Shown: positions 1,837-11,356, counted from the first letter of the stretch. The stretch is 13,035 nucleotides of DNA from a virus (IMGVR_UViG_2690316210_000016:1-13035); one strand, 5' to 3'. Numbers and translations: made by a program. The notes: a model not told the origin generated them from the letters alone.

Positions 1837-3261
1837 ATGAATACTGGATATTCTCCCGAACAAGGGCGGGGCTTCGTTCGTCCTGAAAAACAGAATCTGC
1901 AAAATTTTGCCGAAATTATTCCGGTTATTTCCGGCCTTACTGGCGGGAGTGAAACCAATATTGTTAACGCCAGAGCGTTGCAGATGTTTGATGATAAAAA
2001 GGGAGTAAATTTAACTTACACCCCTGACGGCAATCAGAATATGAGCATTATCTCTGAGTCAGGTTTCTACAAACTAATAAAAACAAAAAGCGCCCCGTTG
2101 CCGGAGCGCCTTTGTGAACAATTAACCTACTGCGCAAAAAATGAATCTGAGCAGTGGGATTATATCAACCATGTGGAGAAGCGCCACAATTGCCGAATAA
2201 CGGGCAAAACAAAGGCCACCCGCTACGGTGGCCCCTCGACACAAGCTACACGTTATCCCCAACGCATGAGCATTGCCAACAATGCCACATTTGCGGCTGG
2301 TGGGCAATGCAATCAGTCTGGTTCAGTTCGTTGCCATACCTGCAATGAGCGCTTTTCCCTGTACTCTTTAAGGAATTGCTCAAGGGCAAAAGCACATGGC
2401 GCGAATCTTTCTGATTCATGCTCTATCTTTCTGCGCCGTCTTTTCCGTGCCGGTGATAATGTTTTGGTCAATTCTTTATCGGTCATTGTGTTGTCCTGCA
2501 TAGCAATGCGCCGTAATACCTTACACCACGGCGCTGATGGTGATTACTCTGGTTCTTTGGTCTTGCGGCGCTGGAGTTCTTCACGTGCGACAGTGACGAG
2601 CTGCCCGATCTCCTCGGCGGCTTTGATTCCGAGTTTTTCCACCTGCGCCAGTGCATCGAGCGAAGAAACCAGGGGATTTTCTCCACTTCCTTCTGCCTGG
2701 CGCCGGGCGATCTCACCGCGTACAGCCGTAACTATAAAATTCGCTTTAGTTTCCCCTGGCTGTAGGGATGCCTCAATGCCACTCACTACTTCATGTGGAA
2801 ATCTGGCATTCAGTTGCTGTGACTTATTGTTAACAGAACTCCTGGACATGTTTGCACCTCCCATTAATAACGGGATGCAGTGTAATACAAAAGTGAATAC
2901 CAAAAAAGACTTGAAATGGTATTCACCTAAATGTAATGTGAATACCACAAGTGCTGATACATGCAATTCAGCAATTGAAACGACGAAGCCCCGCACTGTT
3001 GGAGCAGTAACGGGGCTTCTAACCACCAACGATAACGAGAGTATCGAGGTAGCTATGAGAAATCATACCACACACCCGCAAGGGCGGGACTCGCACAACC
3101 TGAATAAATACATCTGGCGTTTTATCGCCCTGAGCACTGCACAACCGCGCGTGATTACCATTGAGGCCACCAGCGAACAGGAAGCACGCCAGCAATCCCC
3201 GGCTGGCTGCGTGATGGTATTCGCTGCCCGTATTCGTCAGGAGGTGTGCCATGTGCAATAA
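1837..3261 (+). CDS. Questionable 474-codon ORF; only the first ~90 codons look protein-like (antirepressor / Bro-N-like segment)
   Basis: Residues ~50-85 (MFDDKKGVNLTYTPDGNQNMSIISESGFYKLIKTKSA) resemble the C-terminal half of a Bro-N/antirepressor domain, but the N-terminal half does not match well. From about nt 2150 onward the translation is Cys/Ser/Arg/Thr-rich and looks non-coding. The ORF also runs antisense through a well-supported minus-strand gene (2544..2849) and through a repeat-rich regulatory region. Probably a gene remnant plus a chance open frame. Confidence 0.25.
   Translation: MNTGYSPEQGRGFVRPEKQNLQNFAEIIPVISGLTGGSETNIVNARALQMFDDKKGVNLTYTPDGNQNMSIISESGFYKLIKTKSAPLPERLCEQLTYCAKNESEQWDYINHVEKRHNCRITGKTKATRYGGPSTQATRYPQRMSIANNATFAAGGQCNQSGSVRCHTCNERFSLYSLRNCSRAKAHGANLSDSCSIFLRRLFRAGDNVLVNSLSVIVLSCIAMRRNTLHHGADGDYSGSLVLRRWSSSRATVTSCPISSAALIPSFSTCASASSEETRGFSPLPSAWRRAISPRTAVTIKFALVSPGCRDASMPLTTSCGNLAFSCCDLLLTELLDMFAPPINNGMQCNTKVNTKKDLKWYSPKCNVNTTSADTCNSAIETTKPRTVGAVTGLLTTNDNESIEVAMRNHTTHPQGRDSHNLNKYIWRFIALSTAQPRVITIEATSEQEARQQSPAGCVMVFAARIRQEVCHVQ
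2544..2849 (-). CDS. Hypothetical small protein (102 aa), possible island regulator
   Basis: Minus-strand ATG (complement of cat at 2847..2849) sits 6 nt after a strong Shine-Dalgarno (GGGAGGTG on the minus strand). The longer upstream extension in the ORF track (to 3029) is hydrophobic junk, so the internal start is preferred. It faces away from the replication operon across operator-like repeats. No family recognised. Confidence 0.45.
   Translation of the reverse strand: MSRSSVNNKSQQLNARFPHEVVSGIEASLQPGETKANFIVTAVRGEIARRQAEGSGENPLVSSLDALAQVEKLGIKAAEEIGQLVTVAREELQRRKTKEPE
2881..3019. promoter_or_regulatory. Operator-like repeats (GTGAATACC direct and inverted) and a 9-bp-stem hairpin in the divergent intergenic region
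   Basis: GTGAATACC at 2893..2901 and 2938..2946, its inverse GGTATTCAC at 2918..2926; TGTAAT at 2881 and 2932. Hairpin GAAGCCCCG (2985..2993) / CGGGGCTTC (3011..3019) with no downstream T-tract. Lies between the minus-strand gene and the plus-strand operon starting at 3251. Confidence 0.35.
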
Positions 3262-4290: not shown

Positions 4291-4590
4291 ATGAAACTTA
4301 AATATTCTGGCTTAACTGCCAGTGGCAACACTCACCCTAAATTTACGCGCGGTGATATTTACCGCGACCAGTACGGCGGCACGGTAATGATTAAGGGCGT
4401 GGAAGAACGGCGTGTAACCTACCGCCGTGAAGGTTACGAATATGATTGCGTGATGCCTGTTTATCAGTTCCGGCGTGATTTTTCTCTGGTGCAGACCGCG
4501 CCGCATAACGTGCCCACCAGCAACGCCAGGGCACGGGCAAACATCCAGAAGCTGAAAACCATGATTAACGGATTCAGGGGTAAAAAATGA
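4291..4590 (+). CDS. Hypothetical protein, 99 aa
   Basis: ATG at 4291 after GGAGA; its stop overlaps the primase start (ATGA). No family recognised. Confidence 0.5.
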   Translation: MKLKYSGLTASGNTHPKFTRGDIYRDQYGGTVMIKGVEERRVTYRREGYEYDCVMPVYQFRRDFSLVQTAPHNVPTSNARARANIQKLKTMINGFRGKK

Positions 4591-6341
4591 AACTGGCACC
4601 GAACGTAAAACAGCAGTCACGCGGCATAAAACACAAAGGAACAGAAGTCATTATTTTTGCGGGTAGTGATGCCTGGGCACACGCGAAACAATGGCAGGAA
4701 CATGATGCGCGTATGGCCGGAGATAATGAGCCTCCTGTGTGGCTTGGGGAGCAGCAGTTATCAGAACTGGATAAGCTGCAAATTGTGCCGGAAGGCAGAA
4801 AATCCGTGCGCATATTCAGGGCCGGATATCTTGCGCCAGTAATGATAAAGGCGATTGGCCAGAAGCTGGCGGCGGCAGGCGTACAGGATGCAAATTTTTA
4901 CCCTGATGGTATGCACGGTCAGAAGGTGGAGAACTGGCGCGAATATCTGGCCCGTGAGCGCCAGAATCTTTCTGATGGTCTGGTCATTGAGCTTCCGGTA
5001 AAGCAAAAGGCGCAACTTTCGCAGATGGCGGACAGTGAGCGCGCGCAGCTGCTTGCCGATCGCTTTGATGGCGTTTGCGTACATCCTGAAAGTGAAATCG
5101 TTCACGTATGGCGCGGCGGGGTATGGTGTCCGGTCAGCACAATGGAACTTAGCCGCGAAATGGTGGCGATCTATTCAGAGCACAGGGCCACTTTCAGCAA
5201 GCGCGTAATCAATAACGCCGTGGAAGCGTTAAAAGTTATTGCCGAACCAATGGGCGAGCCGTCCGGCGATTTGCTGCCGTTCGCCAATGGTGCGCTTGAC
5301 CTGAAAACGGGGGAATTTTCCCCGCACACGCCGGAGAACTGGATCACCACGCACAACGGCATTGAGTACACGCCACCAGCACCCGGGGAGAACATCCGCG
5401 ATAACGCGCCAAACTTTCATAAATGGCTTGAGCACGCAGCCGGAAAAGACCCGCGCAAGATGATGCGTATATGTGCCGCGCTGTACATGATTATGGCGAA
5501 CCGGTACGACTGGCAGATGTTTATTGAGGCCACCGGAGACGGCGGGAGCGGTAAAAGTACATTCACACACATAGCCAGCCTTCTGGCAGGGAAACAAAAC
5601 ACGGTAAGCGCTGAAATGACATCGCTTGATGATGCTGGTGGGCGTGCGCAGGTTGTCGAGAGTCGTCTTATCGTCCTGGCTGACCAGCCGAAATATACAG
5701 GCGAAGGAACGGGCATCAAGAAAATCACGGGCGGCGACCCCGTGGAAATTAACCCGAAATATGAAAAGCGTTTCACGGCGGTAATCAGGGCGGTGGTGCT
5801 GGCGACCAACAACAACCCGATGATATTCACCGAACGGGCCGGAGGTGTGGCACGTCGTCGCGTGATTTTCCGTTTCGACAATATCGTCAGTGAGGCCGAA
5901 AAAGACAGGGAGCTACCGGAAAAGATTGCGGCTGAAATCCCTGTGATTATCCGCCGATTGCTGGCGAACTTTTCCGACCCTGAAAAGGCACGGGCTTTAC
6001 TCATTGAACAGCGTGACGGTGATGAAGCACTGGCGATAAAGCAGCAAACGGATCCGGTTATTGAGTTTTGCCAGTTCCTGAATTTTCTGGAGGAAGCGCG
6101 CGGCCTGATGATGGGTGGCGGTGGCGATTCAGTGAAGTACACGACCAGGAACAGCCTTTACCGCGTCTATCTGGCGTTTATGGCATACGCAGGCAGGAGC
6201 AAACCGCTAAACGTAAATGACTTTGGCAAGGCTATGAAGCCTGCCGCAAAAGTTTACGGACATGAATATATTACGCGGAAAGTTAAGGGGGTAACGCAGA
6301 CTAACGCAATAACAACAGACGAGTGCGACGCGTTTTTATAA
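4587..6341 (+). CDS. Replication initiator: P4-type primase C-terminal / SF3 helicase (D5-like NTPase) protein, 584 aa
   Basis: Walker A P-loop EATGDGGSGKSTF (nt ~5534..5557) followed by a Walker-B-like hydrophobic stretch ending in D (RLIVLADQ). Overall resemblance to the P4-alpha / PICI pri-rep NTPase domain, and an iteron array lies directly downstream. Family from memory, no search run. Confidence 0.82.
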   Translation: MKLAPNVKQQSRGIKHKGTEVIIFAGSDAWAHAKQWQEHDARMAGDNEPPVWLGEQQLSELDKLQIVPEGRKSVRIFRAGYLAPVMIKAIGQKLAAAGVQDANFYPDGMHGQKVENWREYLARERQNLSDGLVIELPVKQKAQLSQMADSERAQLLADRFDGVCVHPESEIVHVWRGGVWCPVSTMELSREMVAIYSEHRATFSKRVINNAVEALKVIAEPMGEPSGDLLPFANGALDLKTGEFSPHTPENWITTHNGIEYTPPAPGENIRDNAPNFHKWLEHAAGKDPRKMMRICAALYMIMANRYDWQMFIEATGDGGSGKSTFTHIASLLAGKQNTVSAEMTSLDDAGGRAQVVESRLIVLADQPKYTGEGTGIKKITGGDPVEINPKYEKRFTAVIRAVVLATNNNPMIFTERAGGVARRRVIFRFDNIVSEAEKDRELPEKIAAEIPVIIRRLLANFSDPEKARALLIEQRDGDEALAIKQQTDPVIEFCQFLNFLEEARGLMMGGGGDSVKYTTRNSLYRVYLAFMAYAGRSKPLNVNDFGKAMKPAAKVYGHEYITRKVKGVTQTNAITTDECDAFL

Positions 6342-7828: not shown

Positions 7829-8035
7829 ATGGCTGAAGAGAAAAAAGGCGGTGTTTCGGTGTACATAAGCCCCGACATCGTGAAGGCGCTCAAGGAACGC
7901 CACCAGCAGAACGTAAAAGCAGGCATTGCGGCAGGACTTGATCCGCTGGCGATGGTTGAGCCGTCAACAGGCTGGCAGGTACGCGCCTATTTACGCGCGG
8001 CGCTGGGTATGAATCAGGTTCACGGGGGTGAATAA
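7829..8035 (+). CDS. Hypothetical protein, 68 aa, first gene of the capsid module
   Basis: ATG at 7829 after AAGAGGA; stop overlaps the capsid gene start (TAATG). No family recognised. Confidence 0.55.
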   Translation: MAEEKKGGVSVYISPDIVKALKERHQQNVKAGIAAGLDPLAMVEPSTGWQVRAYLRAALGMNQVHGGE

Positions 8036-9090
8036 TGACAGTAAAAGCAATGGCACTTAACACTAACCAGCTTTTTGCGTACCTGAATCGCGGGGATATT
8101 GCGGAATTTAAATTCAGTCCGCTGTTTACCACGCTGTTTTTCCCGAACGTGGCGACATTCAGCACGCAAAACATCATGCTGGATACCCTGGACATTGAAG
8201 AAGTCACCATGTCGGCGTTTTGTTCGCCTATGGTGGGTAGCCAGGTTCAGCGCGATAAAGGGTACGAAACCAGCACGATTAAACCTGGCTACATGAAGCC
8301 AAAGCACGAAATCGATCCAACGAAAACCATCATGCGCATGGCTGGAGAAGATCCGGCACAGCTTAACGACCCTACCTATCGCCGTATGCGCCTGATTACT
8401 GGCAATATGCGCCGCCAGATAAACGCCATAAAAGCGCGCGTGGAATGGCTGGCGGTAAATGCGGTAACGACCGGAAAAAACATCATTGAAGGCGAAGGCA
8501 TAGAGCGCTATGAAATCGACTGGAAGATACCGGAAAAAAACATCATAGAGCAGGCCGACGGGAAAAAATGGTCAGAGCAGGACAAAGAAACCCACGATCC
8601 AATCTATGATATCGAACTATACGCCGATCAGGCTGGTTGCCCCGCAAACGTCATGATTATGGGCGCTGAGGTATGGCGAACGTTACGCAGCTTTAAAAAA
8701 TTCCGTGAGCTGTACGATCTTTCCCGTGGTTCAGAGTCCGCCGCAGAGCTGGCCTGTAAAAACCTGGGCGAAGTGGTGAGCTTTAAAGGCTATCTGGGCG
8801 ATATTGCCCTTATCGTCTATTCCGGCAAATACACTGACAGCGACGGCACAGAAAAATATTTCCTTGAGCCTGATTTGCTTGTCCTGGGCAACACCAACAA
8901 TAAAGGGCTGGTGGCCTATGGTGCGATTATGGATCAGGACGCAGTAAGAACGGGCGCAACGCAAAACATGTTTTACCCGAAAAACTGGATTGAGGACGGC
9001 GATCCGGCGATTGAGTACGTGCAGACGCACAGCGCACCGCAGCCGGTTCCGGCAGATATTCGCAAATTTGTTACCGTCAAAATTGGTTAA
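8035..9090 (+). CDS. Major capsid protein, lambda gpE-like (HK97 fold family), 351 aa
   Basis: Multiple blocks match lambda gpE as recalled: KPGYMKPKHEIDP vs TPGYVKPKHEVNP; DPTYRRMRLITGNMR vs DPAYRRRRIIMQNMR; VSFKGYLGDIALIVYSGKY vs VSYKGMYGDVAIVVYSGQY; LLVLGNTNNKGLVAYGAIMDQDA vs TMVLGNTQARGLRTYGCIQDADA; YPKNWIEDGDPAIEY vs YPKNWVTTGDPAREF. Length is similar to gpE (341 aa). Confidence 0.9.
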   Translation: MTVKAMALNTNQLFAYLNRGDIAEFKFSPLFTTLFFPNVATFSTQNIMLDTLDIEEVTMSAFCSPMVGSQVQRDKGYETSTIKPGYMKPKHEIDPTKTIMRMAGEDPAQLNDPTYRRMRLITGNMRRQINAIKARVEWLAVNAVTTGKNIIEGEGIERYEIDWKIPEKNIIEQADGKKWSEQDKETHDPIYDIELYADQAGCPANVMIMGAEVWRTLRSFKKFRELYDLSRGSESAAELACKNLGEVVSFKGYLGDIALIVYSGKYTDSDGTEKYFLEPDLLVLGNTNNKGLVAYGAIMDQDAVRTGATQNMFYPKNWIEDGDPAIEYVQTHSAPQPVPADIRKFVTVKIG

Positions 9091-9101
9091 CGGGGGATTC
9101 T

Positions 9102-9437
9102 ATGGACACTCCATACATTGAGTTATTTGCAGGCAGTCAGCAGGTCGCCACGACGCTGGTACATTTTGCCGCTGATGCTGGCGTTATTCAGGAATTTACC
9201 CCGCTGATGCTGGCGGACAATGGCGAGTTTAAGCCGTGGGATGGTAAGGAATCTGGCAAGGCTGTTTATCTGACCTCGTACCCTGTGGACACGTCAAAGC
9301 AGAAATCAGCACAGTGTTACAAGACGGGGATATTCAATATTGCCGCCGTTAACTGGCCTGAGAGCGTCGACACCGATGCGAAAAAATGCGCCGCCTTTGC
9401 GGGTTCCGGCGTATCCGTTCAGCCGCTGGCCCGATAA
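9102..9437 (+). CDS. Head decoration protein, lambda gpD-like, 111 aa
   Basis: Matches lambda gpD (110 aa) as recalled: TPLMLADNGEFKPWDG vs TPLMLDTSSRKLVAWDG; CYKTGIFNIAAVNWPESVDTDAKKCAAFAGSGVSV vs [35 protein letters not shown]. Preceded by GGGGGAT. Confidence 0.85.
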   Translation: MDTPYIELFAGSQQVATTLVHFAADAGVIQEFTPLMLADNGEFKPWDGKESGKAVYLTSYPVDTSKQKSAQCYKTGIFNIAAVNWPESVDTDAKKCAAFAGSGVSVQPLAR

Positions 9438-9449
9438 GCAGGGGGAACG

Positions 9450-9863
9450 ATGGCAACGAATGAAAGCATCATGACGCTACCGCTGGCGAGTAAATTTAAA
9501 GCCGAAGCGCGGGCAATGGCTGACAGAGGTTTATCAACCTATGAGGCCGTATATCAACTAAACAAACTGGAAGAGCAGGACAAGCCGCGCGCTGATGCGA
9601 TTATGGCGCTTCATGAGCATAAAGACTATCAGCCGCTGTTGCGTGCAATGGCAAACGTGCCTTGTATCGATGTTGGTACGGCTAAAAGCATCCTTAGCAT
9701 GACCATAGAGCAGGAACGTCCGAAGGTTGCGCCGGAACTTACCGCAGCCTTTGAAAACTTTATGGACATGCACAGCCCGCAAGCCGTATCAGCTGGCATG
9801 GCATACGATGGCAGAAACCAGGGCGATGACGGCGACATCGATCGCATACTGAAAACCATCTGA
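9450..9863 (+). CDS. Hypothetical protein, 137 aa, last gene of the capsid module
   Basis: ATG at 9450 after AGCAGGGGGAAC. No similarity to lambda FI/FII that I can recognise. Confidence 0.55.
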   Translation: MATNESIMTLPLASKFKAEARAMADRGLSTYEAVYQLNKLEEQDKPRADAIMALHEHKDYQPLLRAMANVPCIDVGTAKSILSMTIEQERPKVAPELTAAFENFMDMHSPQAVSAGMAYDGRNQGDDGDIDRILKTI

Positions 9864-9869
9864 GACAAG

Positions 9870-9891
9870 GCCGGAGAAATCCGGCTTTTTT
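9870..9891 (+). terminator. Rho-independent terminator
   Basis: GCCGGA-GAAA-TCCGGC hairpin followed by TTTTTT; nearly identical to the terminator at 7598..7619. Confidence 0.6.
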
Positions 9892-9892
9892 A

Positions 9893-9957
9893 CGGGTCCT
9901 TCCTGGAATTATGGCCCGTTACGGGGCGGCGACCTCGCGGGTTTTCGCTATTTATGA
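9893..9957 (+). other. cos site copy A: lambda-type cosQ-cosN junction with only the first ~22 bp of cosB
   Basis: Contains GTTACG-GGGCGGCGACCT-CGCGGGTTTTCGCTATTTATGA, matching the lambda end junction (12-nt cohesive end GGGCGGCGACCT at 9924..9935, recalled from the lambda genome). The preceding CGGGTCCTTCCTGG resembles the lambda right end ACGGGTCCTTTCCGG. No R-type repeats follow before the Nu1-like gene. Confidence 0.8.
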
Positions 9958-10024
9958 CGTTTTCCCGTGAAGGTGACACCACCACCACTTGATTAATATT
10001 TAACCATGCAGTTAAGGTAACATT

Positions 10025-10459
10025 ATGATTGATAAAGCTTGTTTTGTAAGTCAGCAGGAAATAGCTGAACATTTCAAGGTTAACAGAACCACTATTCGCG
10101 CATGGACCAAACAGGGGATGCCGTATCTTAATGCGGATCGCGGAAAGTCTGGCGGTTATCACATCGGGCATACATTGCTTTGGTCTTCAGGTAAAAGCCG
10201 TCTTGAGGCCATCAGATATCACGTAGAAACCAGTGCGCTGGAAAAAATTATGTTTGCCAGGCTGCTTTCATCTGAGCGTGACGAGTACTCCAGTGAAGAA
10301 ACAGAACATCGATTTGATGAAGGTTTGCAGATTTACGGCTATTCACCGGAAGATGTGAGCAAGGCACGAAATAAAATGGCTGGCTTTCTGGCTGGGTGGC
10401 GTCATGCCGTAAGCGTTCGCCGTGCCAGCATGGAGCAATCAGCCGATACAGAACAGTAA
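10025..10459 (+). CDS. Small terminase subunit homolog (lambda gpNu1-like N-terminal winged-HTH domain), 144 aa
   Basis: VSQQEIAEHFKVNRTTIRAWTKQGMPYLNADRGKSGG aligns with lambda Nu1 VNKKQLADIFGASIRTIQNWQEQGMPVLRGGGKGN. Shorter than Nu1 (181 aa), and the C-terminal half is unrelated. No large terminase subunit gene is present in the window. Confidence 0.72.
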   Translation: MIDKACFVSQQEIAEHFKVNRTTIRAWTKQGMPYLNADRGKSGGYHIGHTLLWSSGKSRLEAIRYHVETSALEKIMFARLLSSERDEYSSEETEHRFDEGLQIYGYSPEDVSKARNKMAGFLAGWRHAVSVRRASMEQSADTEQ

Positions 10460-10527
10460 AGCCGATAACTTGTTAATCACTCGCAGCAATGCATGTGATT
10501 TGTGCACACTTTCGGTTAACTGGTTCG

Positions 10528-10705
10528 ATGTCCGGTTTTAGTGTCTGTTTTTTGCGCATGTCCGGTTCATGGAAAGCATGTTTTTATATTTTTCATATGG
10601 TTAACTTGCAGAGAAACCGGACATGGATCCCGAAAAATTTTCATAAATAGTGAAAACGCGCGAGGTCGCCGCCCCGTAACGGGCCATAATTCCAGGAAGG
10701 ACCCG
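10528..10705 (-). other. cos site copy B (inverted): cosQ-cosN plus a complete cosB-like region with three R-like repeats and an AT-rich tract
   Basis: Read on the minus strand: cosQ-like at 10675..10705, cosN (AGGTCGCCGCCC on plus) at 10663..10674, then TATTTATGAAAATTTTCGGG, matching lambda TATTTATGAAAATTTTCCGG. R-like decamers ATGTCCGGTT at 10528..10537 and 10558..10567 and the inverse AACCGGACAT at 10615..10624, with an AT-rich tract at 10570..10612. This mirrors the lambda cosN-R3-I1-R2-R1 layout but with a different repeat sequence. Confidence 0.75.
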
Positions 10706-10738
10706 ACGACACCAGACTATCAGAACGATGGGGGCACA

Positions 10739-11020
10739 ATGACAGAAGCCGAAATACTGCGATTAATCCGCCGCGTTGCCGGAATCAGCCAGCAGGCCGA
10801 CGAACAGACCACGCAGCCGGACAGCGTGACCGCCGAAAATTATGTTCGTGTGGTTGCTGAGATGATTCGCCGTAATGGTATCCAGCTTAATGATGTGGAT
10901 ATGCGCAACATACGGATCCGCGTTCTTGAAATGCTGGCCTACAATCGCCGCGTGGCACTGTATCGGGAAACGGAGAAAATTACGTACCACTGGAAGAAGC
11001 CGGAGCGGTTGCGGCGGTAA
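10739..11020 (+). CDS. Hypothetical protein, 94 aa, distal to cos
   Basis: Start chosen at ATG 10739 (GGGGG upstream). The ORF-track start at 10541 would translate through cos copy B. No family recognised. Confidence 0.45.
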   Translation: MTEAEILRLIRRVAGISQQADEQTTQPDSVTAENYVRVVAEMIRRNGIQLNDVDMRNIRIRVLEMLAYNRRVALYRETEKITYHWKKPERLRR

Positions 11021-11070
11021 CTGGTTGATATTTTCGAAATTCGCCAGCGGCGAACATCGGGGAAACCAGC

Positions 11071-11187
11071 CTAACCCGTTGATATTTTCGGGAACCTCAA
11101 ATTGAGGAGGTCGGAAACATAACCCGTCATATTCTGGATGCTGATAATTACCACGCAGCCCATTAAGGCCTAACCCGTTGATTCTTC
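11071..11187. repeat. Three direct repeats of TAACCCGT(T/C)(G/A)AT at ~48-bp spacing
   Basis: ctaacccgttgatattttcg (11071), cataacccgtcatattctgg (11119), cctaacccgttgattcttcc (11168); also ttgatattttcg at 11024. Confidence 0.4.
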
Positions 11188-11193
11188 CACAAT

Positions 11194-11356
11194 CCCCCAT
11201 TGGGGGAGGCTGGGCGGCCTGCTGTGGGCTTTTCCACCATTGGTGGAAAGGCGCACATCTGGATCATCATTACGGTGATCAAGGGTATGTAAAACCCACC
11301 AGCCTGATTGACATTTAACCGGAAAAAAGCCAGGTAGCCCCATTATGGGGATCCCC
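11194..11356. repeat. Cluster of GC-rich palindromes with a CCATTGG-type core
   Basis: CCCCCA-T-TGGGGG (11194..11206), TTTCCACCA-T-TGGTGGAAA (11231..11249), CCCCAT-T-ATGGGG (11338..11350) overlapping GGGGATCCCC (11347..11356). Confidence 0.4.

Follow-up and report, generated by a model that had tools for sequence, protein, structure and literature searches.

Why should a mobile element carry two packaging sites that face each other, and does the DNA between them turn around? These questions arise from a 13,035-nt viral sequence (IMGVR_UViG_2690316210_000016:1-13035, hereafter the window), in which two lambda-type cos sites stand in inverted orientation between positions 9893 and 10705 on either side of a small gene. 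Judged by its sequence, the window is a phage-inducible chromosomal island (PICI) of the EcCICFT073 type: it holds an integrase (1-1230), a D5-type primase (4587-6341), a single-stranded DNA-binding protein, and, at its right end, phoQ, and its region 9400-11300 is collinear with Escherichia coli CFT073 (98.9% identity), with the same roxA-phoQ site and gene order. Publications of 2018 and 2019 described the two sites of EcCICFT073, cos1 and cos2, and examined them experimentally (PMC6092414, PMC6739421). The structure is already known and functionally dissected, a textbook case of helper terminase being hijacked by a Gram-negative cos PICI, and the original prediction for this locus, made from the sequence alone, went wrong in taking the cos-flanked module to be undescribed. 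What is new here is that cos2 matches the cos of real phages, that the inverted layout is conserved in sibling islands, and that a small number of natural E. coli lineages carry the segment between the sites in flipped orientation.

The two cos modules and the gene that they enclose comprise the following elements.

9889..9903, plus strand: cosQ of cos1, TTTACGGGTCCTTCC, the same as the lambda cosQ string in Fig. S5 of PMC6092414
9893..9970, plus strand: left arm of the inverted repeat (copy A), from a repeat search and alignment
9924..9935, plus strand: cosN of cos1, GGGCGGCGACCT, the same as lambda cosN (PMC6092414, Fig. S5)
9924..10674: cos-to-cos segment, 751 bp, flipped in other genomes according to genome comparison
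9965..10105, plus strand: cosB of cos1, with limits taken from primers phi80quimera-cosB-3m/-4c (Table S5 of PMC6739421)
10025..10459, plus strand: rppA (redirecting-phage-packaging protein), 144 aa, by sequence match to published RppA
10527..10625, minus strand: cosB of cos2, from an R-box search and comparison of its layout with phage 21 cosB and lambda R3/R2/R1
10527-10537 and 10557-10567: R1' and R2' of cos2, both inverted relative to R3'
10615-10625, minus strand: R3' of cos2, followed by an AT-rich spacer in the I1 position
10528..10706, minus strand: block resembling a genuine phage cos (cosQ-cosN-cosB), 93–96% identical to that of PhiR12-like phages and an O104:H4 prophage
10628..10705, minus strand: right arm of the inverted repeat (copy B), from a repeat search and alignment
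10663..10674, minus strand: cosN of cos2, from the sequence
10695..10709, minus strand: cosQ of cos2, TCGTCGGGTCCTTCC, matching the published cos2 string

The arms are 78 nt long, 90% complementary, and separated by 657 nt, and they share a perfect 47-nt core (CGGGTCCTTCCTGGAATTATGGCCCGTTACGGGGCGGCGACCTCGCG) at 9893-9939 and 10659-10705. Both contain the lambda cohesive-end sequence GGGCGGCGACCT exactly, and each cosN is preceded on its own strand by a cosQ-like string, TTTACGGGTCCTTCC on the left and TCGTCGGGTCCTTCC on the right. Both copies have a lambda-type cosN with cosQ upstream, and both modules face inward, with cosQ outermost and cosB innermost. The predicted pair of complete, inward-facing cosN modules is borne out in this respect; the predicted duplication is also real, although its copies are arms of 78 nt with a 47-nt perfect core rather than 65-bp units. 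The cosB parts are not of the lambda type. Between rppA and copy B, the R-like repeat CATGTCCGGTT occurs three times, once with a single mismatch, compared with 0.26 occurrences expected by chance (10527-10537 and 10557-10567 on the plus strand and 10615-10625 on the minus strand). These repeats adjoin copy B only and are arranged in lambda style, with one box beside cosN, an AT-rich spacer, and then two inverted boxes. In agreement with the published papers, no R-box repeats were found beside cos1 between 9936 and 10105, and a three-box cosB (R3, inverted R2, R1) is present at cos2 only.

Which of the two sites is used, and by what, is largely answered by published work. According to the supplementary sequences of PMC6739421, published cos1 is copy A on the plus strand, running into the start of rppA, and published cos2 is copy B on the minus strand, including its CATGTCCGG repeats. 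Deletion of cos1 lowers transfer of EcCICFT073 by lambda and phi80, deletion of cos2 raises it, and deletion of both abolishes it; when cloned, either site confers plasmid transfer (PMC6092414). RppA binds the small terminase subunit (TerS) of the helper and boosts transfer of cos1 plasmids only, and cosB swaps together with a phi80 chimera assign this specificity to the cosB of cos1 (PMC6739421). The published primers place this RppA-specific cosB1, which makes packaging of phi80 dependent on RppA when transplanted into that phage, at 9965-10105, overlapping the start of rppA. On the swaps and the chimera, the R-repeat cosB beside copy B was rejected as the Rpp target; copy A is the essential and main packaging site. 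A single complete cosB, as originally predicted, is thus correct for the R3-I1-R2-R1 array and incorrect for the functional Rpp-dependent cosB, which is the repeat-poor cosB1, and the scenario in which copy A is never cleaved is contradicted. For the window allele, RppA-TerS-dependent packaging from cos1 would be expected from its counterpart in CFT073, which is 98.9% identical.

About 40 nt to the right of cosN1, Rpp-type cos1 contains a (CCA)n run (window 9978-9989), which is also present in a Klebsiella relative. At the corresponding place, sibling cassettes with a Nu1-like gene have the reverse complement, (GGT)n; the runs lie at about 2440-2460 in locus L011 and at about 2070-2085 in loci L006-L008. 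The (CCA)n run is a candidate recognition element of cosB1.

The gene between the sites is rppA. Its first 50 residues are those of RppA in Fig. S1C of PMC6739421, it has the same protein accession as in CFT073, and the 144-aa product, which carries an N-terminal winged helix-turn-helix (wHTH) domain, matches the RppC structure (PDB 6HLK, E 5e-31) across residues 2-125. When compared with the TerS profile phrog_57, only residues 7-47, the wHTH domain, match, and Pfam returned weak helix-turn-helix matches only and none to Phage_Nu1 (PF07471). Given the structural match, the TerS profile, and the Pfam result, the idea that the enclosed gene of the window is a genuine Nu1 was rejected: the predicted kinship with TerS holds for the wHTH domain, whereas the Nu1 assignment does not. 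A promoter scan gave weak consensus hexamers only, which lie inside the cos-to-cos segment, and given this position, expression of rppA may not depend on the orientation of the segment.

Where does cos2 come from? Over approximately 180 bp, it is 93–96% identical to the cos of PhiR12_1-5 (PV340549-PV340554) and of the O104:H4 prophage. From cosN to the third R box, the sequences align nearly perfectly, and homology stops directly after R1. In the PhiR12-like phages, cos lies between the Rz/lysis genes and a Nu1-family terS, which is followed by terL, W, and the portal gene. Because the near-perfect match extends from cosN to the third R box and ends right there, cos2 is, by sequence, a captured, intact phage cos and a near-copy of the cos of a PhiR12-like lambdoid phage. 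The 169-aa Nu1-family TerS of PhiR12 showed no significant similarity to RppA, and our literature search found nothing relevant on PhiR12 phages. We infer that cos2 serves helpers whose own TerS recognizes it, thereby widening the helper range. That the two cos sites might be read by different terminases had been offered as a second possibility in the original prediction, and the resemblance of cos2 to a real phage cos is consistent with it.

Comparison with related islands suggests how the two sites divide their roles. Siblings that share the flanking genes include an island of O157:H7 at phoQ, as well as others at yejO and near mdtJ. All of them retain two exact inverted cosN sites, with differing cassette content: instead of RppA, their cassettes encode a 180-aa Phage_Nu1-family protein (82.6 bits vs. 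a cut-off of 30). At cos2, every E. coli sibling examined has an intact cosQ-cosN-R3-spacer-R2-R1 arrangement. The cosB2 types differ, yet each is complete, one having CAGATCC boxes and another boxes of the phage 21/phi4 type (CATGTCGG). Two cosB2 types are found with one and the same Nu1-like gene, and the sequence on the cos1 side travels with the gene. One gene combined with two R-box types shows modular replacement of the helper-type cosB, and cos1 plus its gene would form the island's own specificity unit, with cos2 as an exchangeable, helper-matching accessory. Counting the window, three R-box types (CATGTCCGGTT, CAGATCC, and CATGTCGG) occur in otherwise similar islands (window 10527-10625; loci L006/L008 and L007, 2720-2890). 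In E. coli F765 (NZ_AP026082.1, 1543339-1546412), an IS3-family element inside the Nu1-like cassette splits the annotated “terminase small subunit.”

More distant relatives were obtained through a search with homologous proteins, as a search of genome contigs for related loci with RppA only gave no match. No lambda-type cosN was found within two mismatches in the Salmonella loci with an Rpp homologue. One of these, in Salmonella enterica subsp. salamae (locus L015, 2501-5441), is an island lying directly upstream of prophage genes (Packaging_FI, Phage_attach, Minor_tail_Z, and tail_U), possibly a satellite that resides within its helper prophage.

Does the segment between the sites turn? The inverted configuration was built in silico and searched against 5,426 complete E. 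coli genomes. The inverted rppA query was matched over 100% of its 1,901 nt by 15 of them, in one collinear piece and with 98.5–98.6% identity. With left-junction queries, the rppA cassette was counted as forward in 69 genomes and inverted in 15. The Nu1-like cassette was forward in 491 genomes, and a synthetic inverted query found it inverted in 5. The segment is thus inverted in 20 of the approximately 580 complete E. coli genomes with the cassette, in two to three lineages. Annotated gene strands agree for both cassettes; in the inverted rppA loci, an identical RppA is encoded on the other strand while its neighbors are unchanged. Neither rppA nor the Nu1-like gene is disrupted in the lineages with a flipped segment. 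When the locus of WP4-S17 was flipped back at cosN, it showed 0 differences from that of the forward strain CU568-3 in 881 nt. Both orientations, as originally anticipated, do exist among related genomes.

The 15 inverted rppA genomes are approximately 100% identical across a 21.9-kb locus, and there are no forward genomes in their group, which points to one event in one clone. The five inverted Nu1-like cassettes sit at two different chromosomal sites, and one of them (locus L010) is nearer to forward alleles than to its inverted counterpart L009, as judged by gene and flank distances. These two lineages probably represent two further, independent events, mosaicism limiting the certainty of this count. 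The segment has therefore flipped on no fewer than two occasions, most probably on three, and was fixed afterwards.

Within clones, orientation was uniform. All 15 members of the inverted rppA clone are inverted, all O157:H7 genomes among the matches listed belong to the 491 forward genomes, and four of four CFT073 assemblies are forward. No invertase was found near the segment, which holds only rppA and has neighbors (phrog_1999 and phrog_1561) of unknown function; the sole recombinase is the island integrase, 8.7 kb away. As orientation is clonally fixed, a fast phase-variable switch was rejected. The inversion is a rare, clonally fixed rearrangement with no sign of a programmed switch, and the working orientation switch of the original prediction finds no counterpart in these complete genomes. 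In the literature searched, we found no report on the inversion or orientation of PICI cos sites, those of EcCICFT073 included.

Where did the exchanges occur? For the rppA clone, it can be placed within the 47-nt core. In the other two inverted lineages, arm-specific cosQ variants stayed with their flanks and everything inside cosN was flipped, which confines the crossover to 24 and 28 bp including cosN. Across lineages, the crossover windows thus span 24–47 bp centered on cosN. The arms also bear traces of another exchange: the left cosQ of the window allele is of the right-arm type, whereas CFT073 has a different left cosQ, and the perfect core measures 47 bp in the window allele versus 25 bp in CFT073. 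This homogenization of cosQ lies outside cosN and so could not be produced by religation of terminase-cut ends, which implies that recombination acts on the arms. The flips themselves most likely reflect recombination that depends on homology between the arms and that cutting at cos may stimulate. Junction sequence was considered as a means of separating homologous recombination from religation by terminase and was set aside, since both predict a crossover in the cosN-centered core.

Stahl and co-workers reportedly described cos in the 1980s as a recombinator in the lambda Red pathway, in which an end made by terminase focuses recombination near cos. Such an activity could explain the cosN-centered flips; it concerned crosses of lambda and not the inversion of a satellite with two cos sites, and we regard it as a lead only.

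Taken together, the results are, in our judgment, probably explained by an EcCICFT073-type cassette in which cos1 and rppA provide the island's own route, cos2 is a captured phage cos, and recombination between the arms has produced rare flips that became fixed. As published experiments have shown for the CFT073 allele, RppA heterodimerizes with the helper small terminase subunit, and the DNA-binding domain of the hybrid recognizes cosB1. The hybrid recruits a lambda/phi80-type terminase, leading to cutting at cosN1 and rightward packaging. From cos2, the unmodified terminase of a PhiR12-like helper would package the island leftward, and with noncognate helpers, cos2 would be a mild liability. 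Lambda-type termination is polar, with cosQ required upstream of cosN, and inverted copies invert rather than delete what lies between them; the inverted layout would therefore avoid loss of the cassette, and may be a stable way to carry two cos sites. Identity of 24–48 bp between the arms, centered on cosN, would allow occasional inversion of the 0.75-kb segment, followed by fixation in a lineage. By geometry, a flip would move Rpp-dependent packaging to the right arm, running leftward, and cos2 to the left arm, running rightward. The whole island would still lie between successive cos sites of like orientation, so that the packaged content would be unchanged.

Several observations weigh against this explanation. 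With lambda and phi80 as helpers, cos2 is dispensable and even costly in the published data (PMC6092414). The O157-type cosB2 with CAGATCC boxes had no close match in 50,697 phage records. The Rpp-homologue island of Klebsiella quasipneumoniae has a single cosN, which precedes the gene, and lacks an inverted repeat, from which it follows that cos2 is not essential to the Rpp strategy. In two of the flipped lineages, present-day arm identity is just 24 and 28 bp, and the O157:H7 cassette, with 48 bp of identity, showed no flip among the matches listed. The occurrence of flips thus does not follow the length of homology, contrary to what simple RecA recombination would predict.

This last discrepancy is among the points that favor another mechanism for the flips, namely that the helper terminase cuts both inverted cosN sites and the 751-bp fragment religates either way, giving regular flips upon induction. 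We consider this unlikely, although it has several attractions. Cloned cos1 and cos2 are both used by the lambda/phi80 terminase (PMC6092414), and the inner fragment released by double cutting would have two identical 5'-GGGCGGCGACCT ends, as originally predicted and as follows from lambda cos chemistry. Every crossover window in the two to three flipped lineages contains cosN, and in a cassette without an invertase, some noncanonical route is needed. In a variant of the same idea, the cos cut would supply the substrate for a Red-type phage recombinase, and the short arms would be the sites on which it acts. Regular flipping upon induction is, however, difficult to reconcile with clonal fixation, the inverted clone having been sampled globally and being uniform in 15 of 15 genomes, like the listed O157:H7 genomes and the CFT073 assemblies on the forward side. 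The position of the crossovers is predicted equally by homologous recombination, the shared sequence being around cosN only, and the homogenization of cosQ outside cosN requires recombination or gene conversion. Religation would moreover require two cuts, release of terminase from both ends, joining, and survival or repackaging of the product.

It is similarly improbable that cos2 is a functionless, nearly neutral scar left when the island recombined with the cos of a helper phage, in which case the layout and the flips would have no role. The higher transfer by lambda and phi80 upon deletion of cos2, the failure of RppA to promote cos2, the Klebsiella relative without cos2, and the mosaic, variable sequence of cosB2 would all fit a scar. 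A scar would not be expected to retain the intact cosQ-cosN-R3-spacer-R2-R1 arrangement seen in every E. coli sibling examined, or to persist within a collinear cassette, in either orientation, in approximately 580 genomes. In addition, cosB2 has not decayed but has been swapped for other complete types, a pattern that suggests selection to keep the site functional. An assembly artefact, which would have refuted the original prediction, or a chance repeat can be dismissed as next to impossible, both for the duplication and for its inverted configuration. By our own estimate, a perfect 47-nt inverted match in 13 kb has a chance probability of approximately 1e-20; the same arms are present in CFT073 and in over 60 further complete genomes; the genomes with the flipped segment represent many unrelated strains and sources and are annotated consistently; and nothing was found in support of this reading.

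The closest known system is the cos1/rppA/cos2 cassette of EcCICFT073 itself (Fillol-Salom et al., ISME J 2018, PMC6092414; Mol Cell 2019, PMC6739421), which belongs to the same family and has the same site, RppA, and cos1/cos2. The window allele differs from it in having the left cosQ homogenized to the right-arm type. The main texts of these papers contain neither “orientation” nor “inverted,” do not use “opposite” about cos, and describe no inverted variants; the papers do not mention that cos2 matches a real phage cos. Compared with the cos of lambda and phage 21 (cosQ-cosN-I2-R3-I1-R2-R1, then Nu1), the window has an identical cosN and a near-identical cosQ, and its cos2 has the full set of R3, spacer, inverted R2, and R1. 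Unlike lambda, the window has two inverted cos copies and a different R-box sequence; in its cos1, no R boxes are recognizable, and the next gene is rppA, whose sole common domain with Nu1 is the wHTH; next to its cos2, in the place of terS, comes the 3' end of a convergent gene. In PhiR12_1-5 and the O104:H4 prophage, cos is single and followed by the 169-aa Nu1-family TerS. Among satellites, SaPIbov4, with two putative cos sites, and cos-type Staphylococcus aureus pathogenicity islands (SaPIs) such as SaPIbov5 carry helper-type cos, as is the case here, and PMC6092414 itself draws this parallel; SaPIs are Gram-positive elements with sequences unrelated to the window. Invertible systems such as Hin, Gin/Cin/Pin, and fimS likewise comprise a short segment bounded by inverted repeats and occur in two orientations, but the window has no dedicated recombinase, its repeats are functional cos sites, and its orientation is clonally fixed rather than mixed.

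For cos2, hitherto regarded as a dispensable extra site, the match to a phage cos and the replacement of cosB2 suggest a second, Rpp-independent route that sets helper range, and the retention of the inverted two-cos layout across E. coli islands with different specificity genes argues for stable carriage. The flips, with crossovers confined to 24–47 bp around cosN, offer a place to ask whether cos cutting promotes rearrangement. If terminase did drive them, this would amount to recombinase-free, terminase-dependent inversion, measurable in induced cells and in transducing particles, and each flip would pair the Rpp-dependent and the helper-native cosB with the opposite flanks, reversing the direction of packaging. 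Unless that is so, current understanding is unchanged.

Outside the cassette, the immediate surroundings include the following features.

9450..9863, plus strand: left flank gene, 137 aa, phrog_1999, in the same orientation in all forward and inverted loci
9870..9891, plus strand: hairpin GCCGGA-GAAA-TCCGGC followed by T6, identified by eye, which ends the upstream head-like gene block and abuts cosQ of cos1
10739..11020, plus strand: right flank gene, 93 aa, phrog_1561, conserved

The GC-rich hairpin and its T6 run are conserved in all sibling islands and were not reported by a consensus terminator scan; if the hairpin is a terminator, rppA would require its own promoter or antitermination. 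The head-like module upstream of it (8035-9863) encodes a gpE-like capsid protein (8035-9090), a gpD-like decoration protein (9102-9437), and the 137-aa protein, which weakly matches the C-terminal end of head maturation protease profiles and is possibly a Nu3-like scaffold. Despite carrying a head-like module, EcCICFT073 has been reported as packaged in full-size helper capsids. Farther to the left, an open reading frame (ORF) of 474 aa (1837-3261) has no Pfam or PADLOC match; its last 90 residues alone match a phage “transcriptional repressor” family, a short anti-repressor-like motif lies near residues 50-82, and the CFT073 island differs in content at this position. Between the 93-aa ORF and phoQ (window 11018-11210), there are direct repeats of TAACnnGTTGATATTTTCG (11018 and 11072) and GCCTAACCCGTTGAT (11069 and 11168), which may be integrase arm-type or attachment (att)-related sites.

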